From a virus: DNA of 45,630 nucleotides. The translations under genes and the position numbers were made by a program. The notes under the pieces were generated by a model. It made no database searches. It saw only the letters and a list, made by a program, of their open reading frames with translations, and was not told the origin of the DNA. How positions within the stretch are numbered: position 1 is the stretch's first letter; each line of letters opens with the position of its first letter. Below are positions 1 to 14,550 of the stretch, piece after piece. The stretch lies in the IMG/VR virus record IMGVR_UViG_3300034683_000458. The stretch is one strand, 5' to 3'.

Positions 1-127
1 TCTTTCAGGCCGATCAGGACGGCAATATAGATTCCGTCCCAGCCCATGACCCTGCAGTAGTGCTGGCACTGGCAGAAGTATATATCGGGGACAAGATCTC
101 CCTTCCAGTCGTCGGCGTTGTATTCTG
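1..127. repeat. Terminal direct repeat, identical to 45504-45630. Probably the assembly overlap of a circular or concatemeric molecule.
   Basis: Read directly: tctttcaggccgatcaggacgg...cggcgttgtattctg is present at both window ends. Confidence 0.95.
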
Positions 128-1266: not shown

Positions 1267-1283
1267 AAAGGCTTGAAGAACAG

Positions 1284-1529
1284 CTATTGTTGGTCTCCCC
1301 CCGTCTTGGGGGGAAGTGTAGGGTTTGAGTATATTAAGGAAAAAAGCGATCCGCTTTGAAGCCCAAGAGTTGCTTCAAGCGCGGCTATATTCTTTGCATC
1401 TGTAGGTGGATATTTCTCTTTTTCCCAAGCATATATTGCTGACCGTGATACACATATCTTTTCTGCAAGTTGCCCTTGCGTAAGATGCTTGCGCTTGCGT
1501 GCTGAACGGATAATTTCACCATAACCCAT
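1284..1529 (-). CDS. Cro-like XRE-family HTH regulator.
   Basis: KRKHLTQGQLAEKICVSRSAIYAWEKEK is an HTH_3 motif. The gene is divergent from the CI-like repressor. Confidence 0.8.
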   Translation of the reverse strand: MGYGEIIRSARKRKHLTQGQLAEKICVSRSAIYAWEKEKYPPTDAKNIAALEATLGLQSGSLFSLIYSNPTLPPKTGGDQQ

Positions 1530-1565
1530 TTTTATCCCTCCTTAAGAATGCTTACTACACTAAGA

Positions 1566-1594
1566 ACTATATATCTATATTTGATATATGTCAA
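1566..1594 (-). promoter_or_regulatory. Early lytic promoter for the cro-like operon: TTGACA, 17-nt spacer, TATAGT.
   Basis: On the minus strand, TTGACA is at 1594-1589, the 17-nt spacer is tatatcaaatatagata, and TATAGT is at 1571-1566. This is about 37 nt upstream of the ATG at 1529. Confidence 0.65.
1569..1589. promoter_or_regulatory. Candidate operator: inverted repeat ATATATC-N7-GATATAT inside the early promoter spacer.
   Basis: Read directly. It overlaps the spacer/-10 of the cro-side promoter. Confidence 0.4.
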
Positions 1595-1628
1595 GTAACA
1601 TAAGCATCTCATGCATATCTGACTATTA

Positions 1629-1656
1629 TTGACTTTTTGCTGATTTGGTGTAGTCT
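1629..1656 (+). promoter_or_regulatory. Weak maintenance-type promoter for the repressor: TTGACT, 16-nt spacer, TAGTCT.
   Basis: -35 at 1629-1634 and -10-like hexamer at 1651-1656, upstream of the CI-like gene. Confidence 0.4.
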
Positions 1657-1688
1657 GGACTAAACATTCTCAAATGAGGGCGATAATT

Positions 1689-2387
1689 ATGCTGACCGGA
1701 GACGAAATACGCAAGGCAAGGAAAGCTAAAAAACTTACGCAATCTGAACTTGCTGCTATGATAGGAGTATCACGATCAGCTATTTACGATTGGGAAAAAG
1801 GCAAATATTACCCAACCGGCGAACGTGCTATTAAACTGGCAAAAGCCTTAGGGCTTCCAATTTCAAAATTTTTGCCAGATTATTTTCAAAATGGGGGGGA
1901 TGCTGATCAGAAAAAATCTGGCGAAGTTTCTTCCACCAACCACAACATTATTTTGGTTCCATTGCTCTCGGACATAATAAAAGCTTGTTGTGGCATGGGC
2001 AATGGATATGAGTTTCCTGATGATATAATTGAGGAGAGATTGGCAGTGGACGTGGATTCTTTAGGGCCGGTTAATACAAAGGGCATGTTTGCTTGTAAAG
2101 TAGAAGGGGACTCAATGGCTGCAGCTAGGATTTATGATGGGGATATTATTATTGTCGCACCAGAAGAAGAACCAAGAGATGGGGATGTTGTTTTGATATG
2201 CTATGGAGCACACCAAAGATGGATGATTAGATGGTTTTATTCTCAAAGAGATGGTTCTATTATCCTGAAGGCAGCAAACCCAGAATATCCGGAAGTAAGA
2301 GTTACGCCTGAAGATGTAGATTACGGATGGTATAAATATTTGGGGAAAGTAATAGCATATCAAGGATCACCCAAAAAGGGCATTTAA
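1689..2387 (+). CDS. CI-like repressor: XRE HTH plus an S24 LexA-like autopeptidase domain.
   Basis: KLTQSELAAMIGVSRSAIYDWEKG is the HTH. KVEGDSMAAARIYDGDIIIV...ILKAANPEYP is S24 Ser/Lys dyad-like. The ATG at 1689 has a GAGGG RBS; the ORF track starts at 1674. Confidence 0.85.
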   Translation: MLTGDEIRKARKAKKLTQSELAAMIGVSRSAIYDWEKGKYYPTGERAIKLAKALGLPISKFLPDYFQNGGDADQKKSGEVSSTNHNIILVPLLSDIIKACCGMGNGYEFPDDIIEERLAVDVDSLGPVNTKGMFACKVEGDSMAAARIYDGDIIIVAPEEEPRDGDVVLICYGAHQRWMIRWFYSQRDGSIILKAANPEYPEVRVTPEDVDYGWYKYLGKVIAYQGSPKKGI

Positions 2388-2436
2388 GAGGCGATATGTT
2401 TTTAAAACAGTTCATATAAATCGGGAGGGGGAATAA

Positions 2437-3153
2437 ATGGCTGTGGAAAATGAAAATAAGCAAGATAAAGATCTCTCTAAAAAAGCCAAACGTTTTGGAT
2501 GTCTTGCCACTTTAATAATATCAATTGCTTTTGGATTTATGCTTTTTGGTGGCAGCTCAAAAGAAATAACCAAACAGACATCGAATAGCCAACCGATAAT
2601 CGAAAGAACTGATGAAGAATATGACGCTGGCTCCATTGTTAAAGATGAAGAATATGAGATTCCAAACATAATTAAATCTATTCCCGAAGATGAAAGAAAA
2701 GAAATATATTTTGCCTTAATATCAGCAATGGATAAAGCAGCCGAAGAAGCAAAAGCGGAAGTGGTACCAAAAGCTGGAGATGAAATAACATTAAAAGAAG
2801 AAATGCGAATAATACCAACTTCTGTTATCTTTAAAAGACCAGAATATCTAGAACAATATCCATCAATACAGCAGGCAAAGACATTAAAACCGGGCATGAA
2901 AATAAAAATTTTACAAGTTGTCATGGACCAAAATGATGAATACTGGTTTTATGTTCAATGGGGATCTGACAAGGGATGGGTAAGAGAAGCTTTTCTTCAA
3001 ATGCAATTCAATCAATTAGATACGGCAAGAAAAGAAAGTGACATATCCGATGAAATCCAGGAAGAATTAAAAAAATCAATTCTAAAAGAGTACCACATAA
3101 CAGAAGAGCAGCTCGACCAAATTTTTTATGAAGGGATAAACAAAAAATGGTAA
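2437..3153 (+). CDS. Membrane-anchored protein with a C-terminal SH3b-like segment (moron).
   Basis: N-terminal TM segment CLATLIISIAFGFMLFG. C-terminal KILQVVMDQNDEYWFYVQWGSDKGWV. The region is AT-rich. Confidence 0.5.
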   Translation: MAVENENKQDKDLSKKAKRFGCLATLIISIAFGFMLFGGSSKEITKQTSNSQPIIERTDEEYDAGSIVKDEEYEIPNIIKSIPEDERKEIYFALISAMDKAAEEAKAEVVPKAGDEITLKEEMRIIPTSVIFKRPEYLEQYPSIQQAKTLKPGMKIKILQVVMDQNDEYWFYVQWGSDKGWVREAFLQMQFNQLDTARKESDISDEIQEELKKSILKEYHITEEQLDQIFYEGINKKW

Positions 3154-3299
3154 TGAAGAGAAATGGTAATATTGAATTACGAGCTGCCAATCCTGCATAT
3201 CCTCCACTTATCTTTAACAAGGAAGACATTAAAAACGATATGATTAAAATAATAGGCAAGGTAATGTACGTCATAAACAAGCCCAAGAGAGGTTTTTAA
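3153..3299 (+). pseudogene. Relic of the C-terminus of a second S24-family repressor (48 codons).
   Basis: The translation MKRNGNIELRAANPAYPPLIFNKEDIKNDMIKIIGKVMYVINKPKRGF* aligns with the CI C-terminus QRDGSIILKAANPEYPEVRVTPEDVDYGWYKYLGKVIAYQGSPKKGI*. Confidence 0.7.
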
Positions 3300-3330
3300 A
3301 AATAATCAATATAAGCTAGGAGGGGAAGAC

Positions 3331-3984
3331 GTGGCTAAAGAAAATGAAAATAAAGAAATGAGCGAAAAGAGTCAAGTAGATAAAAAAGCATCAACAGCAG
3401 CGGGTGCTGGATGTCTAGTTGTTTTAATAGTAATTATTGTTATTATTGGATTTAAATTTTTCGGTAGTAGCAGTAAGTCAGTATCCTCTTGGCCAACATC
3501 AGAAATAACCCCGGAAACAGTTATGGCAGCATTAAAAGAGGATTCAGGATTAAATCCAATTTGGAAATGCAGAAACTTCAAGGACAACATTGTTGAGGTT
3601 AAAGTTATAGACAGTGCAATTAATCCCGGGCACAAGAATTTATCTGTGTTCTTCAAAATAGGACAAGTATGGGATGAAACAGATCTGATTCGATGTGTGG
3701 GAGGTACGGTATTGTCAGCCTGCAGCATTTTGTATCAAAACCCAAAAGTAGATACTGTCGGGATGTTTGCGTTAGGTGAAATGAAGGATCAATATGGTAA
3801 CAGCAGCCTGGAGACTGTTGTAAAAATAATTTTCAATAGAGATATAGCCAATAAAATTAACTGGAAAGGCTTTACTGAACAATTCAATGTCGATCCAGGC
3901 AATATTTATAGAATAGCCGAAAGTTATCACATACATAATGGTGTATTAAGATATATAAAACCAGACAAAATCAAATTAAAATAA
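3331..3984 (+). CDS. Membrane-anchored hypothetical protein (GTG start).
   Basis: N-terminal MAKENENK... then TM segment GCLVVLIVIIVIIGFKFF. RBS AGGAGGGG. The N-terminus parallels that of 2437..3153. Confidence 0.55.
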   Translation: MAKENENKEMSEKSQVDKKASTAAGAGCLVVLIVIIVIIGFKFFGSSSKSVSSWPTSEITPETVMAALKEDSGLNPIWKCRNFKDNIVEVKVIDSAINPGHKNLSVFFKIGQVWDETDLIRCVGGTVLSACSILYQNPKVDTVGMFALGEMKDQYGNSSLETVVKIIFNRDIANKINWKGFTEQFNVDPGNIYRIAESYHIHNGVLRYIKPDKIKLK

Positions 3985-3999
3985 GTGAGGTGAGCAGCT

Positions 4000-4677
4000 A
4001 TGGAAAAGTGGGTTAAAAGGTTTGCCCCTATTGGTATTGTCATAGCTGTCATCACATCGTTCGCCTTTGCTGGCGTTGCCTCTCAAAAAGCACCTTCCAT
4101 TCCTAACACTGCAGAAAAGGCCTTAGTCTCGCGCGTCATAGACGGCGATACTATACAGCTAGACGACGGCAGGAAAGTAAGGCTCATAGGAGTCGACACC
4201 CCCGAAACGGTCCACCCCCAAAAAGAAGTAGAATATTATGGCAAAGAGGCCTCGGACTTCACTAAATCTATGCTCGAGGGCAAGGAAGTTTATCTGGAAT
4301 ACGATATCCAACCCACTGATAAGTACGGCCGCACGCTGGCTTATATCTGGCTTTCGGACGGTACTCTTTTCAATGAATTGCTCGTGCTAAAGGGATTTGC
4401 ACAAGTCTCCACTTATCCTCCCAATGTGAAATACGTAGAGCGGTTTACTGCAGCGCAGAAGCAGGCCATGGAGACTAATGCCGGACTGTGGGCTAAGGAA
4501 AGCATAGGGAAACCCCAGGCACAGACAAAAGAAATTACTGTCTATATTACAAAAACAGGAAACAAATATCATAGGGCGGGATGCAAATATTTGAAGAAGT
4601 CTTGCATACCAATATCATTAGAGGAGGCTAAGGCGAAAGGTTATGCGCCGTGCAGTGTTTGCAATCCGCCTGAATAG
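4000..4677 (+). CDS. Secreted or anchored thermonuclease (SNase-like) with a C-terminal Cys-rich metal-binding tail.
   Basis: Signal/TM segment IGIVIAVITSFAFAGVA. VIDGDTIQLDDGRKVRLIGVDTPE...YGKEA...DKYGRTLAYIW is the staphylococcal nuclease motif. The C-terminus reads KYHRAGCKYL...APCSVCNP. Confidence 0.85.
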   Translation: MEKWVKRFAPIGIVIAVITSFAFAGVASQKAPSIPNTAEKALVSRVIDGDTIQLDDGRKVRLIGVDTPETVHPQKEVEYYGKEASDFTKSMLEGKEVYLEYDIQPTDKYGRTLAYIWLSDGTLFNELLVLKGFAQVSTYPPNVKYVERFTAAQKQAMETNAGLWAKESIGKPQAQTKEITVYITKTGNKYHRAGCKYLKKSCIPISLEEAKAKGYAPCSVCNPPE

Positions 4678-4702
4678 AAAGACATCTATTCAATAATAGC
4701 CT

Positions 4703-4743
4703 GAGAGCAGGGAGAGAAATACGATCCCTGCTCTCTTTTTTTA
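4703..4743 (+). terminator. Rho-independent terminator after the nuclease gene.
   Basis: An 11-bp stem GAGAGCAGGGA/TCCCTGCTCTC followed by seven T residues. Confidence 0.8.
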
Positions 4744-4779
4744 TTTGCAAAAAATATTTAAAAAAACATGAAAAAGGTG

Positions 4780-4808
4780 TTGACAAAAAATGAAGGTGCA
4801 TATATGAT
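4780..4808 (+). promoter_or_regulatory. Near-consensus sigma70 promoter: TTGACA, 17-nt spacer, TATGAT.
   Basis: TTGACA at 4780-4785, a 17-nt spacer, and TATGAT at 4803-4808. It sits upstream of 4861 and the type IV-B operon. Confidence 0.7.
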
Positions 4809-4860
4809 ATAGACAGCAAGGAAGAAAGCAGGCAAGGAAGAAAAATAGGAGGGATTAGAG

Positions 4861-5544
4861 ATGAAACAAAAAGAACTGGAACTGTGGAAGTTATACGGCG
4901 AGGATAAATATTTGGTAGTGAATCCCGATGAACTTATCCAACGTGTCTCGTTCTATGAGACCGAGGCCTACATGTTTAGCCCAGATGCTAACATGGACCT
5001 TATTCGCAAGGCTCTCGTGGAATATCGGGAGCGCAAAGAAAATGACGAGTGGCTGAGGTTTTATGAGATCCTCGACGAGTATGGCATCGCTTATGAAGGT
5101 ACCGATGAGGCCGAGGACTACAACCCCGATGTCGTCCTTTGCTTCCCAGATGATGACGATCTCAAGTGGGCGGTATGTAGGATGAGCGATCTTATATTGG
5201 GTGTTTCCGACGTCTTCCAATACTGGGACGGTTCGAACTGGCAAGAGATATGGGCAGAAAATGATGTACAGCATCGCCTGTCCGTCGTCATCGATGAAGA
5301 GACGAAGGAGAACTTAGACGAATGGGACGGGTCAAACTGGTGCTACCTACAACCATTCAATCATGGACGCCTTTACAAGATCCTTACTGTCGATAGTAAG
5401 CCTGTCGAGAATAAGTGGTTGTTATGGGAAAGTGCTGACTGGCAAGGCTCGCTCGACTGGGGCACCATCGTAGAGGAAAAGGATCTAGACAGGGTGCGGA
5501 ATTGGGACGCTGATGCTGATATAGAGGAAGAAGAGGGGTTATAA
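4861..5544 (+). CDS. Highly acidic hypothetical protein with a duplicated WDGSNW motif.
   Basis: 227 aa rich in D/E (DDDD, DADADIEEEEG). YWDGSNWQEIW and EWDGSNWCYLQ are both present. RBS GGAGGGA. Confidence 0.6.
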   Translation: MKQKELELWKLYGEDKYLVVNPDELIQRVSFYETEAYMFSPDANMDLIRKALVEYRERKENDEWLRFYEILDEYGIAYEGTDEAEDYNPDVVLCFPDDDDLKWAVCRMSDLILGVSDVFQYWDGSNWQEIWAENDVQHRLSVVIDEETKENLDEWDGSNWCYLQPFNHGRLYKILTVDSKPVENKWLLWESADWQGSLDWGTIVEEKDLDRVRNWDADADIEEEEGL

Positions 5545-5549
5545 GCAAT

Positions 5550-5567
5550 GGCGGGGGTCGCCCCGCC
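5550..5567 (+). other. GC-rich intergenic hairpin, copy 1 of the AATGGCGGGGG element.
   Basis: GGCGGGG-GTCG-CCCCGCC is a 7-bp all-GC stem. It has no U-tract. Confidence 0.6.
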
Positions 5568-5589
5568 TAAAATACAAGGAGGGGTAAAG

Positions 5590-5931
5590 ATGGTCATCAA
5601 AAGGTATCAGAACAGGCGGTATGGCAGATTGGTGGTAGATTTTGAGAAGGGCGAAATCATTATAGATTCACTAAAGCGCGAGAGGATATGGGAGGATGCG
5701 AACAAAAATTATAGTGAACAATCTTATATTTACTCTGAAATTATCGACGAGTTGTTAGGCGATGACGCTAAAGTCATAGCTCCACCTAGACCTGGCCGTG
5801 AGGAATTATGGGCAGGAGAACCTACAGACTTCGGTTTTAGGGCGATTCTTGAGGACGGCTCGATCTTCCAGGTCGATGCCGAAGGGTCATATTTCTTCGA
5901 AGCCGAAGGGTCATATTTCTTCGAAGGATAA
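5590..5931 (+). CDS. Hypothetical protein with a duplicated C-terminal octapeptide.
   Basis: The ATG at 5590 follows an AAGGAGG RBS; the ORF-track start at 5548 would run through the hairpin. The protein ends EAEGSYFFEAEGSYFFEG. Confidence 0.55.
   Translation: MVIKRYQNRRYGRLVVDFEKGEIIIDSLKRERIWEDANKNYSEQSYIYSEIIDELLGDDAKVIAPPRPGREELWAGEPTDFGFRAILEDGSIFQVDAEGSYFFEAEGSYFFEG
5878..5925 (+). repeat. Perfect 24-bp tandem duplication (two copies) inside the CDS.
   Basis: gccgaagggtcatatttcttcgaa occurs twice in tandem. Confidence 0.9.
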
Positions 5932-5938
5932 AAATAAT

Positions 5939-5956
5939 GGCGGGGGCGCCCTCGCC
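5939..5956 (+). other. GC-rich intergenic hairpin, copy 2 of the AATGGCGGGGG element.
   Basis: GGCGGGGGCGCCCTCGCC, an imperfect palindrome followed by the T-rich ttatctgttg. Confidence 0.55.
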
Positions 5957-5982
5957 TTATCTGTTGTAAGGAGGACATACAA

Positions 5983-6144
5983 ATGGAGAAAACTAAAAAG
6001 CTTAATTTCAGAATTACCGACGAACTTCACAGAAAGCTCAAAATCATTGCTATTAAAGAAGGCAGGACGATGAATGACATCATATGCAGCCTTATAGAAC
6101 AGTACGTAGAACAATACGAGGAGGGCGAAGATGCATTTAAGTGA
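5983..6144 (+). CDS. Ribbon-helix-helix (CopG/Arc-like) small DNA-binding protein, 53 aa. It is absent from the ORF track.
   Basis: Manual translation gives MEKTKKLNFRITDELHRKLKIIAIKEGRTMNDIICSLIEQYVEQYEEGEDAFK*. RBS AAGGAGG. The gene overlaps the csf1 start by 14 nt. Confidence 0.7.
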   Translation: MEKTKKLNFRITDELHRKLKIIAIKEGRTMNDIICSLIEQYVEQYEEGEDAFK

Positions 6145-6763
6145 ACTGCTGGCTGTTGCTACAGGCAGCGATATCGGGAAAGGCGATATCGCGGGTATCT
6201 GTGTCGTTTGTGGGGCCGAGACCGAATGCGGAATACCTCTTAAAAAAGTGGTCTCGGATAACTTCACGGGCTGGAATTGTTTCTTCGCCGGCAACTGTAC
6301 CTGTCCTGAATGTGCATTCATCTTCTCTGATCAGACATTCAGAAGAAAGTCGTGGGTGGCGTCGTCATCTGGTTTCAAGACGTTTAAAAACGACGAGGCA
6401 TGCTCAATTCTCTTTTCGCCACCGGACCCCCCATTTTTCATTCACATAGCAAAGCTTGGCCAGAAGCAGACATGGCTGCGCTGTCTGCACAACGTGGCCA
6501 ATAGTACGAACAAATACTGGTTCTCCCACGAAGGTTACGATATTCCTATCCTTTTTGAGAAGGACAAAGCCGTGTCTTACCTTGATACGGCGTTATCTGC
6601 TCTTGGACTGGGCATAACCAAAACAGAGCTCAGGACAGGCGAATTTAAACTCAAGACCTGGAGGGAGGCGTATGAAAAAGGTTATCAGGATTTTTTGCGC
6701 AGCATTCGCAGTTTGAAAAATAATCTGCTCTGGGAGGTGATAGTAGATGTCGCAAGAAGATGA
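6131..6763 (+). CDS. csf1: Type IV Csf1-like (Cas8-like) large subunit with an N-terminal zinc ribbon.
   Basis: CVVCGAETEC...CTCPEC cysteine pairs, about 210 aa. It is the first gene of a csf1-cas11-cas7-cas5 order. RBS GGAGGG. Confidence 0.6.
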   Translation: MHLSELLAVATGSDIGKGDIAGICVVCGAETECGIPLKKVVSDNFTGWNCFFAGNCTCPECAFIFSDQTFRRKSWVASSSGFKTFKNDEACSILFSPPDPPFFIHIAKLGQKQTWLRCLHNVANSTNKYWFSHEGYDIPILFEKDKAVSYLDTALSALGLGITKTELRTGEFKLKTWREAYEKGYQDFLRSIRSLKNNLLWEVIVDVARR

Positions 6764-7124
6764 AGACAGGATCATCGAAATGCTGGCATTGATTTACAAC
6801 GCAGTCGACTGGAAGAAAATGAAGACTGCAAAAAACCCTCATGATATATTCAACCATCGCGTGAGGGCAGCAAGCAGGAGGGGGACCATCTTTGAGGCCG
6901 TTTCAAAGTTGGCCAATTATTTCGGCCTTCAATCTCTCCCGACCGGAGCCATACGCATTGCCCAACAGCTCCGGCCAATTGAACAGGAAGTGCTAAACAA
7001 GCTTTATGCCGAGCACATCCCCATGTCCATGCTTGCTATCATGAGGGCAAAGGAAATGAGGGATGAAAGGCGGAAGCTGAGGGATGAAAACAATAATTCA
7101 GAAGAGGTGATCAATCTTGCGTAG
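6747..7124 (+). CDS. cas11: Cas11-like small subunit (assigned by helical composition and position).
   Basis: 125-aa helical protein with a basic/acidic tail, located between csf1 and the cas7-like gene. It overlaps both neighbours. Confidence 0.5.
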   Translation: MSQEDEDRIIEMLALIYNAVDWKKMKTAKNPHDIFNHRVRAASRRGTIFEAVSKLANYFGLQSLPTGAIRIAQQLRPIEQEVLNKLYAEHIPMSMLAIMRAKEMRDERRKLRDENNNSEEVINLA

Positions 7125-7950
7125 GTATTATGAAATTGAAGGTACAGCTACCGCACTCACGCCAATATTCCACGGCGGAGACGAAAAGACCGGCTCCACA
7201 CCGGTCCTGCGGACAATTATGGTTTATGTCGACAACATAGGTGAAGTGCCGATCCCATACATATCTGGAAACGGCATCAGAGGGAAGCTGCGCAGAATGA
7301 CGATGAAGGACTTTATAGACAGCGTCGATTACGAGATACAGAACGTCAAACTGCATCACGTCCTCTTTTCAGGCGGCATGCTCGAATCAACTGAGGAGAC
7401 CTACGGCAGTATAGACCTTGAGCTGCGTAAGAAGGTGCGTGAGCTCATGCCTCCAGTGGCACTGTTCGGCTGTGCCATAGGCAATCAGATGATACAGGGT
7501 ATTCTGACCGTCGAACACATGTGGCCAATATGCCTCGAATATAGCGCTTATTTGCCTGAGAAATACTGGTCAGACCGGAGGGCCAAGCGGCCAATACGCA
7601 CCTTCACTGACCAGAGCTTCATTACTAGAAGAGATGACCTGCGTGCCGAGAGGGCGGAAGACGAACAGGCTGTCCAAATGAAGGTGGACTACGAATGTTT
7701 TGTGCCGGGGACGAAGTTTTACCACCGCTTTATCCTGCAGATTCCGGACGAACTTCAAAAGAGCTGTTTCGGGAGAATAATGGATCTGTTCGCCATGATG
7801 CCCTATATAGGGGGGCGAGGCTCTGGAGGAGACGGAAAGGTTATGTTGTCGTATGACAATATCCCCAGCGCTGATCTATATATGGAGTTTCTTGCAGAAA
7901 AGAAGGACGAAATCAGACAGCTGTTGCAGGAACTGGAGGCGAGGCTGTAA
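7117..7950 (+). CDS. csf2: Type IV Csf2 (Cas7-family RAMP) backbone subunit. TTG start.
   Basis: ISGNGIRGKLRR matches the Cas7 signature. YIGGRGSGGDGKV is a glycine-rich RAMP loop. The TTG at 7117 is preceded by GAGGTGA. Confidence 0.75.
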   Translation: MRRYYEIEGTATALTPIFHGGDEKTGSTPVLRTIMVYVDNIGEVPIPYISGNGIRGKLRRMTMKDFIDSVDYEIQNVKLHHVLFSGGMLESTEETYGSIDLELRKKVRELMPPVALFGCAIGNQMIQGILTVEHMWPICLEYSAYLPEKYWSDRRAKRPIRTFTDQSFITRRDDLRAERAEDEQAVQMKVDYECFVPGTKFYHRFILQIPDELQKSCFGRIMDLFAMMPYIGGRGSGGDGKVMLSYDNIPSADLYMEFLAEKKDEIRQLLQELEARL

Positions 7951-8687
7951 TGCTTGATGAGAGGAAATACTTCCATGACCGCCTCGCAAGTGCACCGCCG
8001 ATTCGATGGGGGCGTTTTGCCCCCTTCCGGATCTCATTTAAGATGGGGTCACCGGTAGCAGTCACCATGCCATGGATCAACTTTGACGGCCTTATAGCAC
8101 ATCTCATGTTACTTGATGCTCTCGGCGATGACTTCTTTATCACGCCAAAAAAGCTCGATCTGACCGACAGCCTGCCCAAAAACAGAAGACTGCTGCCCAT
8201 CAAAAAAACCGGAGATATATATCATGCAAGCGTAAGTATGTTTATCCCCGACAGCTTGCGCGTCACGCATCTTTATAAAAGATTTGAGGACAGATGGACC
8301 AATAACCTGAAGACCAAAAAGGTGAGTATAGCATCCGGTAAATTCCGTTCTTACTTCATGGCCGAGCCATACATTCCATGTCGTGAGGTCGTATATTATG
8401 TCTTCGGAGATATGAATATCATTCAAGACCTCATAGAAAGCTATCTCTTTGGGTTGGGCAATGACTGCAGAGTAGGGTTCGGAATGGTGCGTGATGTGGT
8501 ATTCGAGGAGATGGACGAGGATATGTCTCTCGTTGCCAAGGGAATTGCGATGCGTCCCATACCTGTCGATATGTGCGAAGAATATGAAGATTCTGCGTAC
8601 ATTGCCTATAAAGCACCGTACTGGAATCCGAGAAACGTTGCGCTCTGCGTGCCTCCCGGAGTTAAATGCAAATTGAAAAGGTTGTGA
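7950..8687 (+). CDS. csf3: Type IV Csf3 (Cas5-family RAMP).
   Basis: LFGLGNDCRVGFGMVRDV is a glycine-rich loop, and this is the second RAMP in the locus. It overlaps csf2 through TAATG. Confidence 0.65.
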   Translation: MLDERKYFHDRLASAPPIRWGRFAPFRISFKMGSPVAVTMPWINFDGLIAHLMLLDALGDDFFITPKKLDLTDSLPKNRRLLPIKKTGDIYHASVSMFIPDSLRVTHLYKRFEDRWTNNLKTKKVSIASGKFRSYFMAEPYIPCREVVYYVFGDMNIIQDLIESYLFGLGNDCRVGFGMVRDVVFEEMDEDMSLVAKGIAMRPIPVDMCEEYEDSAYIAYKAPYWNPRNVALCVPPGVKCKLKRL

Positions 8688-9385
8688 TGGTAGTGGACTT
8701 GAAGAAAATACTTGCCATGTGGGCCGATACGGACGAATTCAAGGAGAAGCTGCAGGAGGCTGACGGCATCATCAAAAAGGCACTTGCATCGCACAAAAAA
8801 CCTTACGTCGCCTACAGCGGGGGGAAGGACTCGAGCTGCATGCTTTACCTCGTCCTCCGCCGTTGCCCTGACGTGACGGTACTACACTGGGATTATGGGC
8901 CGTATTATATCCCCGACTGGCTAAGAACCGAGTTTATAGAAAATGCAAGGAAAATCGGGGCCAAGAATTTACGTATCGAGACCAGCGACGATTATCTAAG
9001 GCTCAAACGGCACGCAGTTAATGTACTGGGTCGGGAATATATTGGAAAGCTTATTCCAAACCTTGCAAGAGAAGGATATGATCTTAGTTTTGTAGGTCTT
9101 AGGCGTGAGGAAAGCCTGAAGCGCAAAATAAGGATCGATACAAAAAAATTCATCACTGAAATTGAAGAATGTTGGCCTCTAGCTAACTGGTCATGGAAGG
9201 ACGTATGGGCGTGTATATTTGCTAATAATATCCCTTATGCAAGCACATATGATATATATGCCCCTGTGGTGGGCTGGGATAAGGTAAGACTTGTGACCTT
9301 CTTTGATCCCGAGTTTGACCATTTCGGAGCCGGCAACGTTGACGGCGTCCTCATGTGGAGATTTAAAAATATTCATCAGGGGTGA
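8666..9385 (+). CDS. CysH-like PAPS-reductase / PP-loop ATP pyrophosphatase family protein, the hallmark accessory of type IV-B.
   Basis: YVAYSGGKDSSCMLYLV is a PP-loop SGGKDS motif. The gene lies immediately downstream of csf3 and overlaps it. Confidence 0.75.
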   Translation: MQIEKVVMVVDLKKILAMWADTDEFKEKLQEADGIIKKALASHKKPYVAYSGGKDSSCMLYLVLRRCPDVTVLHWDYGPYYIPDWLRTEFIENARKIGAKNLRIETSDDYLRLKRHAVNVLGREYIGKLIPNLAREGYDLSFVGLRREESLKRKIRIDTKKFITEIEECWPLANWSWKDVWACIFANNIPYASTYDIYAPVVGWDKVRLVTFFDPEFDHFGAGNVDGVLMWRFKNIHQG

Positions 9386-10278
9386 ATGTCATGATACGTA
9401 TAGGGATGGAAGATGACGAGAAAAAGAGGATGATTGACAGCTATGTTGCAGAAAATGACATCAGGAAAGTATTTATATTCTATTATAAGGACTTTCTATT
9501 AGAATACGACAATGCAGACATAGAGGTAGAACATGTCGAATATGCCGACATAATTATGTATAAATTCTTCTACCGTCTGCTTGAAGAGATAGACAACAAT
9601 GTCCTGCTTGTGTTCAACGAATGCATGCGCACGCAGAACAGGAGCGATCTCACATACAACTGCGCTCATCATTACTGTAACCAGACAAAGCATAAGATCG
9701 TTTTCGAATATTTCCCGTTCATCGAAGATAACGCAGATTTCATGATTCTTCTCGATTTCCTCAATAAATATAAGTACAAAGGCAAATCATTCAGGTATGA
9801 GCTGCTTGCAGAAGAAGATATCCTCGCCGTGCCCAAATCTTTCACGATCAGAACTATCGACGTTAGCATCACTCAAAAAGATATTGCGAAATATGAAAAG
9901 CTCAAGGAAGATCTTTTTAACAATCTAGGTGAATCGGATCCAGATATAATTCCGAGAAGGCTGCATGTTTGGGCCGGCAATCTCAAAAAAAGCTGTATTA
10001 AACCTGACTTGCTCTATGTTGCGAGAAACAAGCGGTTCAAGCTGCCTAATGTAGTGACTTATAAAGAAGTAGAAGAAAGAGACTATATTATCATCGACAT
10101 GTCTCACAGAAGAATAGATTTTAATGATTTCCTAAAAAAGACAAAAATGAGAGATATTGTGTTTATTAATACAGGCCTGAAGGTTGACCTGTATTACGTA
10201 AATGATTTAAGGGAGTGGGCGGAAAGGTTAGGTGAGTTCTATGATAAAGCAGGTTTATATCGACAAAAATGTGCTTGA
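9382..10278 (+). CDS. Hypothetical protein with no recognisable domain, AT-rich.
   Basis: 298-aa ORF (alternative ATG at 9391 with RBS AGGGGTGA). It overlaps both flanking PP-loop genes. Confidence 0.6.
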   Translation: MNVMIRIGMEDDEKKRMIDSYVAENDIRKVFIFYYKDFLLEYDNADIEVEHVEYADIIMYKFFYRLLEEIDNNVLLVFNECMRTQNRSDLTYNCAHHYCNQTKHKIVFEYFPFIEDNADFMILLDFLNKYKYKGKSFRYELLAEEDILAVPKSFTIRTIDVSITQKDIAKYEKLKEDLFNNLGESDPDIIPRRLHVWAGNLKKSCIKPDLLYVARNKRFKLPNVVTYKEVEERDYIIIDMSHRRIDFNDFLKKTKMRDIVFINTGLKVDLYYVNDLREWAERLGEFYDKAGLYRQKCA

Positions 10279-11359
10279 GGCTACGAAAGAACGTATAGCG
10301 TTCGTTTTTGACGAATTCGAGAATATCATCGTATCCATCAGCGGAGGCAAGGACAGCACCGTGCTTGCCCATTTGGCCCTCACCGAAGCCCACAGGCGCA
10401 ACAGGCGGATAGGCATCTTTTTCCTGGACGAAGAGGTTGTCTACGAAAGTACCGTGAAACAGGTCGAGTACATCATGAACTTATATCCGGAGAATACCAT
10501 CCCGCTGTGGTTTCAGATTGAATTCAATCTCACCAACGCCAGCAGCCTGACGCAGACACAGCTGATTCCTTGGGAAGCCGGCAAGCATAAGATATGGATG
10601 AGGCCGAAGCAGAAAAACTCGATCCAGCATAAGCCTTGGCCCAAGGAGACCGAGACGGTCCGGGATAAAAACAAAGGTTTCGGATTCTATGATGCCCTTG
10701 AGAATTTTCAGAGATCAAGGCATGATACCGCCTTTTTGATTGGCCTGCGTGCTACAGAAAGCCCCAACCGTTGGCGTGCGGTATCGAAAAATCCGGGTTA
10801 CAAGAACATATACTGGAGCACAAAGCTCAAAAATAATAACTATAACATGTATCCGCTTTATGACTGGAATTTCCATGACATTTGGAAGTACATCTATGAC
10901 AACCAGCTTCGCTATTCGAAGATATATGACTATATGTTCAAGAAAGGAATGGGACTGCAGGAGATACGTGTATCCAGTCTGATCCACGAAAAATCATTCA
11001 AGTCTCTTGTGGAGCTGCCTGAATTTGAGCCTAGGACATATGACAGGCTGCTAAGGAGGGTAAGGGGCATCAGCGTTGGGCATATATACGGGAAGGACAG
11101 CAAGGCATTGCGGGCACGCAAGCTGCCGAAGAACTTTAAGACATGGATCGACTACAGGGATTTCCTGCTTGTGACGTATCCTGATCCAAGCAAGAAATGG
11201 ATATTCGAGAAGCGTTTCAGCAGGCAGCTCAACAATTCCTATGTGGCACGGCAGCAGTGCAGACAGCTGCTGTTGAACGACTACGAGAACAACCTGCCGA
11301 TAGACAATAAGCCAGATCCCAGAGAAGAAAAGATTGAGAAATGGAGGAGATTGTTATGA
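10232..11359 (+). CDS. Second PAPS-reductase-family PP-loop protein, IbrA/DndC-like, with a long C-terminal extension.
   Basis: IIVSISGGKDSTVLAHLAL is a PP-loop motif. At 375 aa it carries an extra C-terminal domain. A ParB-like gene follows, which is the IbrA-IbrB arrangement. Confidence 0.7.
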   Translation: MSSMIKQVYIDKNVLEATKERIAFVFDEFENIIVSISGGKDSTVLAHLALTEAHRRNRRIGIFFLDEEVVYESTVKQVEYIMNLYPENTIPLWFQIEFNLTNASSLTQTQLIPWEAGKHKIWMRPKQKNSIQHKPWPKETETVRDKNKGFGFYDALENFQRSRHDTAFLIGLRATESPNRWRAVSKNPGYKNIYWSTKLKNNNYNMYPLYDWNFHDIWKYIYDNQLRYSKIYDYMFKKGMGLQEIRVSSLIHEKSFKSLVELPEFEPRTYDRLLRRVRGISVGHIYGKDSKALRARKLPKNFKTWIDYRDFLLVTYPDPSKKWIFEKRFSRQLNNSYVARQQCRQLLLNDYENNLPIDNKPDPREEKIEKWRRLL

Positions 11360-11898
11360 GGACAATACAGACGCAAAAAGGTGAAATTAAACTTACATGT
11401 ATGGACGTCAGGATAGTCGACATCGACTCGGTGCAGGCAAATACATATAACCCCAATTCCGTCCCAAGAAACAATATGAGATTGCTGGAGGAATCAATCA
11501 TCTCGAATGGATTCTGCTACCCCGTCGTTACGGTTTATGATCCCGATATAGAAAAATACATTGTAGTGGATGGTTTTCACAGGTATATCATCTTTCGTGA
11601 CTGGCTGCAGGCCAAGGAGATCCCGATCATCGTCTTGGATCACGACATCTCGGAACGCATGGAGGCCACCGTGCAGTTTAACCGTGCCAGGGGGGTCCAC
11701 CAGGTTGAACTTATGGGTGATCTGGTCAAGGCTCTTGTCGAACAGGGAGTAGATGACCAGGAAATAGCCGTAAAACTGGGCATGGAGTTGGAGGAAGTAT
11801 ACAGGCTTAAGCAGATTACGGGCATTGCGGAACTGTTTAAAAATCAGGAATACTCAAGGGCATGGGAAATAATCGAGGTGGATGACGATGCCGTCTAG
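11356..11898 (+). CDS. ParB N-terminal-domain (sulfiredoxin-like) protein, IbrB-like.
   Basis: YIVVDGFHRYIIF matches the DGxHR ParB box. The ATG at 11356 overlaps the upstream stop (ATGA) after a GGAGGAG RBS; the ORF track starts at 11341. Confidence 0.7.
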   Translation: MRTIQTQKGEIKLTCMDVRIVDIDSVQANTYNPNSVPRNNMRLLEESIISNGFCYPVVTVYDPDIEKYIVVDGFHRYIIFRDWLQAKEIPIIVLDHDISERMEATVQFNRARGVHQVELMGDLVKALVEQGVDDQEIAVKLGMELEEVYRLKQITGIAELFKNQEYSRAWEIIEVDDDAV

Positions 11899-12631
11899 AA
11901 AATGGGATTACGGCGATGCATACCTGCGCCATCCTATAGGTGAAGATCAGGCAGCCGTTTTTGATAACGGCAGCATCGTGAAGGTGCATGATATATTCAA
12001 CCCTCTGCCGGATTTCATGAAACAGGCAGATGTCATATTCACGGATCCGCCTTGGAACCTCGGGAATCTGAACACTTTCTACATGAAGGCACAAAAACAG
12101 GAGAGGCATAATTCTTTCGAGGGATTTTACAGAAGGCTTTTCGAATGCATAGCAATCATAAACCCGAGAGCATGTTACGTGGAAATTGGGAAAATGTATT
12201 TAAGCGAATTTATACAAGAAATGAAAAAGCTATATCGTTACGTTACGTTTTATAACAGCAACTATTATCACAAAAAGGAAAATATATGCTATATAGTGCA
12301 TGGTAGCAATAAAAGAAAGAAACTGCCGTTAGACTATATGGATGAAGAGGACGCTATAGAGTGGGTATGTGAAAACGAAGAATATAACTGCATAGGTGAT
12401 CTATGTATGGGCAGGGGGTTAGTTGGGGTCAATGCCTATAAAAACGGCAGGAAATTTGTGGGCACCGAACTAAACCATAAAAGATTGGCTGTACTTTTGG
12501 AAAGAATTGTAAATATGGGTGGGACTTATAAGCTAATCAAATATTCGCCTTGTCATCCAGCCAATCTGCCCACCACTGCATCATCTCTCTCCTCTGATCC
12601 AGATATTCCGCATGGTTGTAGGCAGCTCTGA
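11882..12631 (+). CDS. DNA methyltransferase (N6-A or N4-C), beta-class motif order.
   Basis: VIFTDPPWNLG is motif IV (DPPW). It precedes GDLCMGRGLVGVNA...FVGTELN, a motif I-like segment. The last 30 or so codons are antisense to the integrase 3' end. Confidence 0.7.
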   Translation: MTMPSRKWDYGDAYLRHPIGEDQAAVFDNGSIVKVHDIFNPLPDFMKQADVIFTDPPWNLGNLNTFYMKAQKQERHNSFEGFYRRLFECIAIINPRACYVEIGKMYLSEFIQEMKKLYRYVTFYNSNYYHKKENICYIVHGSNKRKKLPLDYMDEEDAIEWVCENEEYNCIGDLCMGRGLVGVNAYKNGRKFVGTELNHKRLAVLLERIVNMGGTYKLIKYSPCHPANLPTTASSLSSDPDIPHGCRQL

Positions 12632-13757
12632 CCGCATTCTTTTCTACATGCGCCAGCTGGCGTTCTATGACGTCGGCTGGCCACCCATTCTCGTTCAAGA
12701 TCGTTGAGGCCATGGATCTGAAGCCGTGGCCGGTAAAATCTTCCTGCCCGTATCCTAACCTTCGCAGGGCAGCATTCACAGTTGTATCGCTCATAGGACG
12801 GCTGAATGAGCGTGCAGACGGGAAGATGAATCTGGAAAGAGACGTAAAGGGCCTTAAGCTGGTTAGCACGCTCACAGCCTGTTTTGAGAGTGGCACGATG
12901 TGCATTCTTTTCATCTTCATCTTTTCTGCTGGGATTCGCCATTCGGCTGCTTCAAAGCTGACCTCCTCCCATTCGGCCGTTCTGAGTTCCCCGGGGCGCA
13001 CAAACGTATATGCTAAGACAAGCAAAGCGTTTCTTACGATCTCAGATCCGTTCAGCCCCCTGATTGCTCGCATCAGTGCGCCTATTTCCTGCGGATCCGT
13101 TATTGTTGGGTATCCGGTAGTTTTAACTGGCACCAAGGCGCCGCGTAAATCAGCAGCAATATCTCGCTCGGCCATGCCTATGGCTATCCCATACCTGAAT
13201 ATCTGACTGCATATTTGGAGAACACGATGGGCAGTTTCGTATGTTCCTCTTGCCTCTATCATGCGTATGATGGCAAGGATGTCGGTAGGCGAGATCTCCG
13301 ACATGGGCTTTTGGCCTATATACGGCAATATCAATCTATTAAGCCTTGAGGTGACTGTTCGGATGTGGTTCCTGGTACGGATCGGGAAAACCTTTTTCTG
13401 AAGCCAGTCCTGGGCTATGGCCTCAAAGGTCTTATCGGTCAGCTTTGAGACCGGCTGCCCAGATCTCATCACGGAGGCCTTCATTTCATCCCTTATTCCC
13501 CTGGCCTCTTTCAGGCCTATGGCAGGATATTGGCCAATGGAATGCTTATATTCTTTGCCGTCTATCCAATACCTGAGCCTCCAGTATTTTTTGCCTGAAG
13601 GCATGATCTCAAGATAAAGCCCGTCACTGTCAGAGAGCATATATCTTTTTTCTTTGATCTTAGCCCTTTTGATAACGTTATCCGTAAGCATCCCCGAGTC
13701 TCCTTTGTGTACGGTGGCAACTCGGCGTGTGTACGGTTCTGTGTACGGTTTGATCAT
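12537..13757 (-). CDS. int: Tyrosine integrase, P4/CP4-57 type, with an N-terminal arm-binding (DUF4102-like) domain.
   Basis: LSDSDGLYLEIMPSGKKYWRLRYWIDGKEYKHSIGQYP forms the N-terminal domain. HGFRSMASTIL...ERQLAH...RAAYNH gives the catalytic H-x-x-R, H and Y. Confidence 0.9.
   Translation of the reverse strand: MIKPYTEPYTRRVATVHKGDSGMLTDNVIKRAKIKEKRYMLSDSDGLYLEIMPSGKKYWRLRYWIDGKEYKHSIGQYPAIGLKEARGIRDEMKASVMRSGQPVSKLTDKTFEAIAQDWLQKKVFPIRTRNHIRTVTSRLNRLILPYIGQKPMSEISPTDILAIIRMIEARGTYETAHRVLQICSQIFRYGIAIGMAERDIAADLRGALVPVKTTGYPTITDPQEIGALMRAIRGLNGSEIVRNALLVLAYTFVRPGELRTAEWEEVSFEAAEWRIPAEKMKMKRMHIVPLSKQAVSVLTSLRPFTSLSRFIFPSARSFSRPMSDTTVNAALRRLGYGQEDFTGHGFRSMASTILNENGWPADVIERQLAHVEKNAVRAAYNHAEYLDQRREMMQWWADWLDDKANI
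13728..13750 (+). repeat. Left arm-type repeat: two tandem copies of TGTGTACGGTT. It lies inside the integrase 5' codons, and a degenerate third copy is at 13706-13716.
   Basis: tgtgtacggttctgtgtacggtt, read directly. Confidence 0.8.
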
Positions 13758-13861
13758 GGTTTGTATAGTTTTTCATTGAACTGCGTTGAACAGCCAAGCT
13801 GCCAGAAATGCCGTTTGTATCATGCTATTTGAACTATATCATACTCGGATGGACTTCAATA

Positions 13862-13885
13862 TGGTGGAGGCGGGGGGAATCGAAC
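13862..13885 (-). other. attP core: the 3' end of a tRNA gene (T-loop, T-stem 3' strand, acceptor 3' strand, CCA).
   Basis: The minus strand reads GTTCGATTCCCCCCGCCTCCACCA. The sequence 5' of it has no tRNA features. The site is adjacent to the integrase. Confidence 0.7.
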
Positions 13886-13937
13886 TGAATATAACTTTTT
13901 CAGTTGTACACGAGGGATATCCACATATGTGAATATG

Positions 13938-13961
13938 TTGTGTACGGTTCTGTGTACGGTT
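13938..13961 (+). repeat. Right arm-type repeat, in the same orientation as 13728-13750.
   Basis: ttgtgtacggttctgtgtacggtt matches the left copy exactly over 22 bp, on the other side of the tRNA-like core. Confidence 0.8.
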
Positions 13962-13971
13962 GTGACTGCGC

Positions 13972-14367
13972 TTATTCTTCAAATATTATTTTGTTACGGT
14001 TATTTTCGATAAAATTAAACAACTCATCAGATACGCTATATAGGCCAGAGATATTAATAGCTCCTTCTTTTTCAACAGAGCGAAGGACGAGATCATGCAA
14101 TTTTTTTGCTAAAGTCCTATCAGTACACCTTATTTTTAAATATTGTATTTGCCCAATGATGTTTTTGGCTATGCATAGCTCGGCATGAAGGTCAGACACA
14201 TTTATAAACAAGTATAGGCCATTGTGGTATATAACGCTTGTTGTTTGAATCAAGCACGGATTTGGGGAAAGAAGATTATCGTCCAGTTCTGCGCCACACT
14301 TTTGGCATACTACCTTCCCGTCTTCACAATACATGCCACCGGCATGATGATACAAACGCAACGGCAT
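13972..14367 (-). CDS. Hypothetical att-adjacent moron protein with an N-terminal CxxxxxxCxxC zinc-ribbon-like motif.
   Basis: 131-aa ORF in an AT-rich island. CEDGKVVCQKCG motif. RBS AAGGGG. Confidence 0.55.
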   Translation of the reverse strand: MPLRLYHHAGGMYCEDGKVVCQKCGAELDDNLLSPNPCLIQTTSVIYHNGLYLFINVSDLHAELCIAKNIIGQIQYLKIRCTDRTLAKKLHDLVLRSVEKEGAINISGLYSVSDELFNFIENNRNKIIFEE

Positions 14368-14403
14368 GAGACCAACCCCTTTTTATTTTGTAGTAATAAA
14401 TTG

Positions 14404-14412
14404 ATTATAACA
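14404..14412 (-). promoter_or_regulatory. Extended -10 element (TGtTATAAT) upstream of 13972..14367.
   Basis: The minus strand reads TGTTATAAT about 37 nt upstream of the ATG. No good -35 is present. Confidence 0.4.
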
Positions 14413-14550
14413 GATAGCTGCCGGTGGCAGATCGTTTTTATCCAGGGATGCAAAAAATATATGCCTCTAGGATGCCCCAGAACACCCCTAACTTGTAGCG
14501 GTTGGTACGATTATACCTCTAAAAAGGCCCAAACTGAGCTGTAACTAATC

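Follow-up and report, generated by a model that had tools for sequence, protein, structure and literature searches.

Organization of the locus

The DNA analysed here, referred to as the window, is a 45,630-nt stretch of viral sequence (IMG/VR virus record IMGVR_UViG_3300034683_000458) in which a run of ten plus-strand genes extends from a ribbon-helix-helix (RHH) gene at position 5983 to the stop codon of a DNA methyltransferase gene at position 12631 (Table 1). Behind the RHH gene, the block encodes the four subunits of a type IV-B CRISPR-Cas effector and a CysH-like PP-loop enzyme (CasCysH), followed by a 298-residue protein (orf298), a second PP-loop enzyme (IbrA), a ParB-like partner (IbrB) and the methyltransferase. 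Comparison with related loci indicates that the second PP-loop enzyme and its ParB-fold partner have apparently been recruited repeatedly and independently into type IV-B operons, and only where the SNF2 helicase that usually accompanies them is missing.

According to the map of open reading frames (ORFs), the start and stop codons and the junction strings, the ten genes are joined solely by overlaps or near-overlaps (in order, 14, 17, 8, 1, 22, 4, 38-47, 4-19 and 17 nt). A preliminary description, made from the sequence alone, had listed five of these junctions (the 14-nt overlap, TAATG, GTGA, ATGA and the 17-nt overlap), all of which are present, and the remaining ones overlap too. The starts of orf298 (GTG 9382 or ATG 9391) and of ibrA (GTG 10232 or ATG 10241, the latter with the better Shine-Dalgarno sequence) are ambiguous, but no real gap arises with either choice. 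Because the block is devoid of intergenic space, there is no room for a promoter or terminator gap, in agreement with what had been proposed, and matches to consensus promoters and terminators within the coding sequence occur at chance level (29 found vs. 28 expected; 15 vs. 10.4; comparison with shuffled sequences). The candidate operon promoter sits in a 183-nt gap ahead of the gene at 4861. Overlaps are also found at 44% of the other same-strand junctions of this phage; nine in succession are still unusual (roughly 0.44^9). The packing is thus unusually consistent, yet not by itself proof of a functional unit.

Table 1. Features of the block and its surroundings (positions refer to the window).
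Feature	Position	Strand	Basis or remark
Candidate operon promoter, sigma-70-like	4780..4808	+	TTGACA-17-TATGAT; 11/12 matches, strongest plus-strand match; consensus match only
Two lineage-specific genes, function unassigned	4861-5544 and 5548-5931	+	between the promoter candidate and the RHH gene
RHH (Arc/CopG/HicB-like) DNA-binding protein	5983..6144	+	Pfam HicB 1.1e-6; PHROG Arc-like repressor 8.5e-10
RHH/csf1 junction	6131-6144	+	14-nt overlap
csf1, Cas8-like large subunit of type IV	6131..6763	+	PADLOC Csf1_0_IV 9e-38; TIGR03114 6.4e-7, under cutoff
csf1/cas11 junction		+	17-nt overlap
cas11, type IV small subunit	6747..7124	+	PADLOC Cas11_0_IV 3.9e-36
cas11/csf2 junction		+	8-nt overlap
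csf2, Cas7 backbone subunit	7117..7950	+	PADLOC typeIV_Cas7 7.9e-84, Csf2_0_IV 7.5e-74
csf2 stop/csf3 start	7948-7952	+	TAATG
csf3 (Cas5)	7950..8687	+	PADLOC Csf3_0_IV 1.4e-53
csf3/cysH junction		+	22-nt overlap
cysH, CasCysH-like PP-loop ATP pyrophosphatase, type IV-B signature accessory gene	8666..9385	+	Pfam PAPS_reduct 5.9e-14; SGGKDS motif
cysH/orf298 junction	9382-9385	+	GTGA
orf298, conserved, probably ATPase-degenerate SNF2/SF2-like protein, first cassette gene	9391..10278 (alternative GTG start 9382)	+	AlphaFold2/Foldseek, hhalign
orf298/ibrA junction		+	38-47 nt overlap, depending on the start chosen
ibrA, IbrA-like PP-loop enzyme	10241..11359	+	Pfam PAPS_reduct 6.6e-15, DUF3440 4.2e-10; PHROG 2302 3e-89, full length
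ibrA/parB junction	11356-11359	+	ATGA
parB, IbrB-like ParB/Srx-superfamily protein	11356..11898	+	PHROG 2159 3.1e-55; Pfam ParB_N 3.3e-5, 24.3 bits vs. 26.3 cutoff (just below)
parB/methyltransferase junction	11882-11898	+	17-nt overlap
Small beta-class N6-adenine/N4-cytosine DNA methyltransferase, DPPW motif	11882..12631	+	Pfam N6_N4_Mtase 5.5e-6, 26.9 bits; PADLOC MTase_II 1.6e-8
Tyrosine integrase, 406-aa ORF	12537..13757	-	convergent with the block

The proximal genes: a type IV-B effector with CasCysH

The identities proposed in the preliminary description (type IV-B genes, an IbrA-like protein, a ParB-N protein and a DPPW methyltransferase) were all recovered with Pfam, NCBIfam, PHROG and PADLOC profiles. 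Judged by gene content and profile matches, csf1-cas11-csf2-csf3-cysH is a bona fide, complete, array-less type IV-B system, with the four effector genes in one operon (PADLOC 1e-36 to 1e-84) and the cysH-like gene adjacent to them; the NCBIfam matches of the Csf proteins (TIGR03114-6) fall under the model cutoffs. To our knowledge, type IV-B is a CRISPR-Cas subtype without known function, having no array and no nuclease but only a ribonucleoprotein (RNP) and an unexplained CysH-like enzyme. In the present case, no CRISPR array, mini-array or array-like repeats were found in positions 1-14500, no Rfam family in the window and no tRNA, and therefore a guide-RNA locus beside the operon is not supported. 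Likewise, Pfam and PADLOC recognised neither Cas6 nor a helicase domain among the ten proteins of the block. The CasCysH-like protein (239 residues) has its last cysteine at position 183 and lacks both a C-terminal catalytic cysteine and an ECGLH-type C-terminus. The protein thus fits the published description of CasCysH, a PP-loop enzyme without the C-terminal catalytic cysteine, for which AMPylation of nucleic-acid substrates in complex with the Csf RNP has been predicted (PMC8175902).

When csf2 was compared with isolated phages, the sole match was weak (Skermania phage SPI1); a csf2 identical to that of the window is carried by a Bacillota metagenome-assembled genome (MAG; L072, loci of the comparison being cited by their L numbers). 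In the relative L001, which is otherwise 98-100% identical, csf2 (window 7117-7950; L001 10001-10831) is 91% identical and the methyltransferase gene 85%, which means that individual genes of the block are either subject to exchange or evolving more rapidly than the adjacent ones. As a separate observation, a few type IV-B loci of this clade carry a Cas6 gene (family G13, three csf2 clusters; Cas_Cas6_C, 1e-17; e.g., L152 12796-13575), either directly after cysH or between csf2 and csf3, in agreement with the rare Cas6-bearing IV-B loci reported earlier.

The distal genes: a mobile cassette

The product of orf298 had been described as an orphan, which proved incorrect: 621 homologues were found in Bacillota, Synergistota and Clostridium botulinum elements. 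None of the Pfam, PHROG and PADLOC families matched this group, and the protein gave no match in phage and plasmid records, although the protein database holds C. botulinum homologues. The best Foldseek matches of its AlphaFold2 model (pLDDT 89.5) are SNF2h, ISW1, Sulfolobus SWI2/SNF2 and XPB (E about 1e-6, TMq 0.5-0.64), and a comparison of the orf298 profile with the neighbouring SNF2 helicase family of other phages gave an hhalign probability of 67% (E 5e-5). Read by eye, the sequence has NE instead of DE at the Walker B position and no GxGKT motif; the protein is therefore probably an ATPase-degenerate SNF2/SF2-like relative, as far as the model and these motifs allow.

IbrA of the window contains a single cysteine, and IbrB shows weak similarity to the ParB-fold serine kinase SerK. 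The association of the two is tight, as a ParB gene lies beside IbrA in 79 of the 80 sampled loci, on the same strand and within 400 nt in 69 of those 79. Searches of PDB sequences with IbrA, CysH and IbrB returned only distant CysD and SerK matches, so that no close relative has been solved. Homologues of the methyltransferase measure about 213-223 aa, whereas the last ~30 codons of the window gene run into the integrase gene, with which it shares 95 nt at the convergent 3' ends (12537-12631); this C-terminal extension of about 30 aa and the overlap look like a recombination scar left where the cassette met the integrase gene. A small GNAT-type acetyltransferase is a recurrent, optional member of the IbrA-IbrB cassette, located between or beside IbrA and ParB in both csf-linked and SNF2-linked versions (L274 11928-12314, L276 11947-12408, L221 and several clade-A IbrA loci, family H8); the label is annotated in L274 and L276, and for family H8 it is a reading of the sequence by eye.

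The distal four genes are an autonomous, horizontally mobile cassette that usually occurs without csf. In tblastn searches with the window proteins, orf298-IbrA-ParB-methyltransferase was kept as a unit in about 36 of 39 IMG/VR IbrA loci, of which 26-31 have genes for F1 (about 400 aa) and an SNF2 helicase ahead of the cassette; similarly, the place of csf is taken by the SNF2 helicase family F0 in 31 of 44 orf298 loci. The usual order elsewhere is thus F1-SNF2 helicase-orf298-IbrA-ParB-methyltransferase, and the same six genes in the same order are present in a 58-kb C. botulinum element (CM003335.1) and an Aminobacterium colombiense contig (JAIVNC010000041.1). In the latter, as in the window, the gene next to the cassette is a convergent integrase (Pfam Phage_integrase), and an AcrVA2-like gene also adjoins the cassette. 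The window itself has no homologue of the SNF2 helicase (F0) or of F1 (tblastn; no match better than E = 0.78). The idea that F1 might be a relative of Csf1/Cas8, both having N-terminal zinc ribbons, was abandoned, given hhalign probabilities of at most 3.6% against every Csf family. Where the cassette lies between csf3 and cysH (L039 and L043), its junctions overlap and its GC content is lower (in L039, 0.47-0.57 vs. 0.59-0.62 for the csf genes, CysH and flanks), which indicates recent insertion. A nucleotide search of positions 4800-13300 against isolated phages gave no match.

Recurrent linkage of IbrA/IbrB with type IV-B operons

Overall, about 280 related loci were compared. Among them are 159 loci with csf2, drawn from viral contigs, GTDB genomes, metagenomes and plasmids, which were dereplicated to 90 clusters and their gene families labelled by iterated hidden Markov model searches; the scan used a 9-sequence Csf2 alignment, because a 13-sequence alignment was too divergent. 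The 55 clusters with at least 3.5 kb beyond csf3 were regarded as informative. Both IbrA and ParB occur in 10 of these 55, and at least one of IbrA, ParB and the methyltransferase in 16. After CysH, IbrA and ParB are the commonest neighbour families of csf, and each of the 12 IbrA genes is found no more than 5 kb from the csf core, compared with none in 285 kb of farther flank (p about 0.006).

The arrangement of the shared genes varies considerably. The order of the window (CysH-orf298-IbrA-ParB-methyltransferase) recurs in Caldicoprobacter algeriensis (L073) and L096, whereas the whole cassette stands inside the operon in L039 and L043 (csf3-orf298-IbrA-ParB-methyltransferase-CysH). A shorter insertion, csf3-IbrA-ParB-CysH, is found in a Pirellulales MAG (L084), an ANME-1 MAG (L086), L167 and plasmids of Natrinema and Halomontanus, and L221 has csf2-IbrA-GNAT-ParB-csf3-CysH. 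Other orders are CysH-IbrA-ParB (L013, L020 and L075, a Thermoanaerobacter MAG being among the carriers), IbrA-ParB-csf1 (L016), ParB-csf-ParB-methyltransferase-orf298like-IbrA-CysH (L079) and a convergent arrangement (L085, a Heimdallarchaeota MAG, and a Rhodovastum plasmid). The carriers of csf with IbrA/ParB thus comprise Bacillota, Pirellulales, ANME-1, Heimdallarchaeota and haloarchaeal and Rhodovastum plasmids; no IbrAB was seen in the actinobacterial plasmid loci inspected (Rhodococcus, Xylanimonas). In the IbrA trees, csf-linked members occupy at least ten separate places among csf-free phage IbrAs (at least six subclades of one clade and at least four of the other). Linkage to type IV-B is therefore apparently recurrent and independent, in bacteria as well as in archaea.

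Moreover, the neighbourhood of IbrA is strongly enriched in csf relative to viral contigs in general. Of 2.9 million viral contigs scanned in IMG/VR, just 49 contained csf2, while csf was present in one of 80 essentially random clade-A IbrA loci and in five of 39 loci with IbrA of the window type. The preliminary description had asked whether homologues of 9382..10278, 10232..11359 and 11356..11898 co-occur with csf elsewhere, which they do in several unrelated lineages, and it had named independent assortment as the outcome that would make the juxtaposition accidental. Since the linkage recurs, the gene orders differ, the genes are often intercalated inside the csf operon and csf is enriched beside IbrA, an accident of this kind is unlikely.

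The slot between csf3 and cysH, which receives IbrA-ParB in some loci, is occupied in other type IV-B loci by putative modification enzymes (L182 1580-2275, L147 5469-6077, L108 11598-12068, L021 12184-12858 and L177 8751-9398), and an equivalent slot is found between csf1 and cas11 in L093 (8839-9570). These enzymes include a GT2 glycosyltransferase, TRM-like and SpoU-like methyltransferases (weak matches) and N6/N4-type methyltransferases, and modifying enzymes in general seem to be accommodated in the slot next to cysH.

Mutual exclusivity with the SNF2 helicase

When all IbrA+ParB loci are considered, 75 of the 114 without csf have an SNF2 helicase no more than 6 kb from IbrA, against none of the 29 csf-linked ones (Fisher p = 8e-12). 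The difference persists after clustering of IbrA at 70% identity (12 of 22 csf-free vs. 0 of 11 csf-linked; p = 0.002). In most phages, IbrA-IbrB directly follows an active SNF2 helicase, but in at least about 11-15 independent lineages no such helicase is present and type IV-B genes adjoin or enclose the pair. CysH, by comparison, always accompanies csf and not IbrAB, for only two of 80 csf-free loci have a second PAPS-family gene, one of which is IbrA-sized. Type IV-B together with CysH occupies the position of the helicase partner and, we infer, its role. That each pairing arose without the SNF2 helicase usually found next to IbrA/IbrB provides a testable lead on the function of type IV-B.

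Possible function of the composite block

With a probability of about 45%, the block is a fusion of two mobile-element modules in the lysogeny-side region of the phage, in which the Csf RNP with CysH stands in for the helicase and marks nucleic acid. One module is the array-less type IV-B effector (Csf1, Cas11, Csf2 and Csf3) with its PP-loop enzyme CasCysH; the other is the mobile cassette of orf298, the PP-loop enzyme IbrA, the ParB/Srx-fold protein IbrB and the N6A/N4C DNA methyltransferase. The Csf RNP would take over the task of the SNF2 translocase, i.e., engaging or opening the nucleic-acid substrate, at which IbrB (of the nucleoside triphosphate (NTP)-dependent DNA clamp or nickase type), CasCysH and IbrA would act and might activate a position by AMPylation. 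The methyltransferase could then decorate the activated position, as a GNAT or glycosyltransferase may do in other lineages, and the net result would be covalent marking of DNA or DNA-bound RNA, serving prophage self-protection or exclusion of competing elements. PP-loop enzymes work by adenylating their substrates, and ParB/Srx proteins are NTP-dependent DNA clamps, nickases or phosphotransferases; the mechanism is proposed because of these activities, the analogies with Dnd and Dpd systems and the AMPylation suggested for CasCysH. RNP-directed nucleic-acid modification, already raised in the preliminary description, is what we infer and not what we observe. A wider claim, that Csf complexes and SNF2 translocases can replace one another as the engine that engages the substrate of a widespread IbrA/IbrB nucleic-acid modification machinery, that type IV-B carries out RNA-scaffolded or RNA-guided covalent modification (epigenetic marking) with CasCysH and IbrA as paired AMPylating enzymes, and that methyltransferases, GNATs and glycosyltransferases are plug-ins, must be regarded as unlikely.

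Several points weigh against the fusion of two modules into a marking system. About 80% of the informative type IV-B clusters have no IbrAB, and about 99% of clade-A IbrAB loci (79 of the 80 sampled), as well as most cassettes of the window type, have no csf; both modules are mostly found alone, and therefore neither needs the other. Thus, the single functional unit suggested by the preliminary description survives as a recurrent linkage, but the partnership is facultative. Within one csf2 cluster (at least 90% identity, the group of L073), the position after cysH is empty, filled by IbrA-ParB or filled by the four-gene cassette, and such rapid turnover also fits a recombination hot spot. A close relative (L031/L192, IMGVR_UViG_3300010277_000176) has suffered a 1004-bp deletion, equivalent to window 7375-8378, that joins the 5' portion of csf2 with the 3' portion of csf3, while the RHH gene, csf1, cas11, cysH and the four-gene cassette are all intact; the DNA identity is 93% upstream and 79% downstream of the deletion, which points to a mosaic. 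Furthermore, IbrA and IbrB reportedly activate prophage eib genes in E. coli, in work from 2002 attributed to Sandt and co-workers, which is said to be the sole published phenotype and to have no known mechanism. Finally, locus sampling was pattern-based and biased to one csf2 clade, and the IbrA trees are neighbour-joining trees without support values. The solitary modules, the turnover and the csf2-csf3 deletion fit a facultative partnership, but equally a hot spot or a parallel counter-defence model.

The hot-spot explanation, which seems rather unlikely, holds that separate, non-interacting modules repeatedly land as independent cargo in shared variable stretches of phages and plasmids (beside the integrase, behind the lysis genes or ahead of the terminase) and that the tight packing reflects phage genome economy. 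It accommodates the three observations just named, the retention of the cassette after loss of csf2-csf3 among them, together with the frequent overlaps at other junctions of this phage and the occurrence of the SNF2 version of the cassette in the same integrase-side slot in Aminobacterium. Nonetheless, it does not predict strict exclusivity with SNF2, and it is difficult to reconcile with IbrA-ParB genes intercalated in the csf operon (csf3/cysH or csf2/csf3) with overlapping junctions in distant bacteria and archaea, or with the confinement of all 12 IbrA genes to the vicinity of the core. Strict exclusivity is also left unexplained if the block is a counter-defence island, in which the Csf complex would sponge host guide RNAs and IbrAB with the methyltransferase would modify phage DNA against restriction, the two acting in parallel and being co-transcribed owing to shared timing. 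Such a guide-RNA sponge has been proposed for type IV-B (PMC7038947; PMC8175902), the methyltransferase and the PP-loop/ParB pair do resemble DNA-modification machinery, and the AcrVA2-like gene beside the Aminobacterium SNF2 cassette points in the same direction. However, the placement of IbrA-ParB between csf3 and cysH, and not beside the operon, has no explanation here either, and the block runs in the same direction as cI within the lysogeny region, which points to expression in lysogens and not early in infection. This account is considered unlikely.

It is also conceivable, although very unlikely, that the RHH protein and an RNA-binding Csf complex are further regulators and that the block controls phage gene expression or the lysis-lysogeny decision instead of nucleic-acid chemistry. 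The overlap of the RHH gene with csf1 in the window would be in keeping with such a role, as would L013, in which csf-cysH-IbrA-ParB stands directly upstream of a 159-aa ORF (by eye, a sigma/RinA-like late regulator) and probable terminase genes. Yet the cassette consists mostly of enzymes (two PP-loop ATP pyrophosphatases, a DNA methyltransferase, an SNF2-type protein and, in relatives, a GNAT or glycosyltransferase), its genomic position varies (beside the integrase, after lysis genes, on plasmids) and the RHH gene is confined to one lineage.

The recurrent recruitment of IbrA/IbrB into type IV-B operons provides a first functional context for the common phage IbrA/IbrB pair and for the 621-member unannotated protein family of orf298. 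Together with the lack of the SNF2 helicase in csf-linked loci and the methyl-, acetyl- and glycosyltransferases found in the same slot elsewhere, it turns the vague idea that these systems may modify nucleic acids into specific experiments. Which substrate is adenylated by CasCysH and IbrA, whether Csf recruits IbrB and whether Csf-CysH and F1-SNF2 can be swapped are the questions raised. Cultured or sequenced carriers are available in Caldicoprobacter algeriensis TH7C1, Natrinema thermotolerans A29, Halomontanus rarus KZCA124 and Rhodovastum atsumiense G2-11.

Phage setting and neighbouring genes

The window is a temperate Bacillota phage, of whose lineage IMG/VR contig 3300033999_000220 is a nearly identical member. 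Genes for RecE/RecT, a replication initiator, TerS, TerL and the portal protein lie on the minus strand, followed by lysis genes and the tyrosine integrase. The csf/IbrAB block is located between a cI-like repressor (1674) and the integrase, co-directional with the former and convergent on the latter, at which both the cassette and the lysogeny-side region end. The RHH protein, whose gene was found in just six related loci, is probably a local regulator. The two genes at 4861-5544 and 5548-5931 have no Pfam or PHROG match and, among the loci compared, are present only in the window's own phage lineage (L001, L030 and L031).

Some further features of the surroundings deserve mention. An 11-nt motif (TGTGTACGGTT and variants) occurs five times at 13706-13973, around the 5' end of the integrase gene and its upstream region; the copies are probably integrase arm-type binding sites, which would mark attP between the lysis genes and int. 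A 32-nt element with a GC-rich hairpin and an ATG (…ATGGCGGGGG…) is present at 5537-5568, at the start of the gene at 5548, and again at 5926-5957, just past its stop; at the second of these sites the near-identical L001 contains about 1.9 kb of additional genes, which have apparently been deleted from the window. The region ahead of the cI-like gene is bracketed by two 75-nt inverted-repeat arms (1410-1484 and 1734-1808, 77% complementary), which overlap the gene at its 5' end and may represent related sequences on the two strands of the genetic switch. Directly after the repressor gene, positions 2437-4677 encode two predicted membrane proteins and a secreted thermonuclease-like nuclease (PHROG 20876, 4.5e-41), which are further prophage cargo with the same transcriptional direction as the csf block.

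Comparison with known systems

The type IV-B part of the block shares its four effector genes and cysH-like gene, in canonical order, with the type IV-B locus of Mycobacterium sp. JS623 (Zhou et al. 2021, PMC7937560; reviewed in PMC8175902), and both are carried on a mobile element and have no CRISPR array, Cas6, nuclease or helicase. It differs in residing in a Bacillota prophage and not on an actinobacterial plasmid, in having an overlapping RHH gene ahead and in being fused to orf298-IbrA-IbrB-methyltransferase. The only neighbours of type IV-B named in the literature searched are cysH, an ADP-ribosyltransferase and an N6-methyltransferase (figure legend) (PMC7038947, PMC8175902). Within the literature searched, in which coverage of subscription journals was incomplete so that a prior report is possible, no description was found of a link between type IV-B and ParB, IbrA/IbrB, DUF3440 or SNF2 replacement; type IV-B with a recurrent IbrAB-type accessory module thus appears not to have been described before. 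A phage reported with both "IbrA/B" and "CRISPR/Cas" was considered as a precedent, but its system is type I-E.

A second comparison concerns DNA-modification systems. The components of the block are combined in a similar manner to those of Dnd, Ssp and Dpd, in which a ParB-like protein of the NTPase or nickase type (DndB, SspB, DpdB) works on DNA together with a PP-loop or base-exchanging modification enzyme (DndC, SspD, DpdA). A PP-loop/ParB-like pairing has been described for Dnd modification, and the Dpd system includes a ParB-like ATPase, DpdB (PMC10853773; PMC12839542). Unlike Dnd and Ssp, however, the proteins of the block include no cysteine desulfurase or SMC/ABC-type ATPase and show no Cys dyads or Fe-S motifs. 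Phosphorothioation is unlikely because the block has no DndA/SspA desulfurase, IbrA has one cysteine and CysH has no C-terminal cysteine; in addition, the DndC matches are weak and local (E 1e-5 to 1e-7). Membership in BREX type 4 was likewise rejected, as the two PP-loop proteins give weak, partial BrxP matches (2.4e-9 and 3.5e-5) and no PglZ, BrxC or BrxL was detected among the ten proteins (PADLOC).

The closest counterparts of the distal genes are found among mobile elements. The last four genes of the F1-SNF2 cassettes of C. botulinum and Aminobacterium are orthologous to those of the window (35-85% identity, same order), but there F1 and an active SNF2 helicase hold the place that is taken by RHH-csf1-cas11-csf2-csf3-cysH in the window. 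IbrA/IbrB of E. coli ECOR-9 and their phage homologues (PHROG 2302/2159), a pair widespread in phages and proviruses of bacteria and archaea, consist of a PAPS_reduct + DUF3440 protein followed directly by a ParB-N protein, as in the window. The window pair departs from the usual form in being flanked by the degenerate SNF2-like protein and the methyltransferase, and in having type IV-B with CysH in place of the upstream SNF2 helicase and F1.

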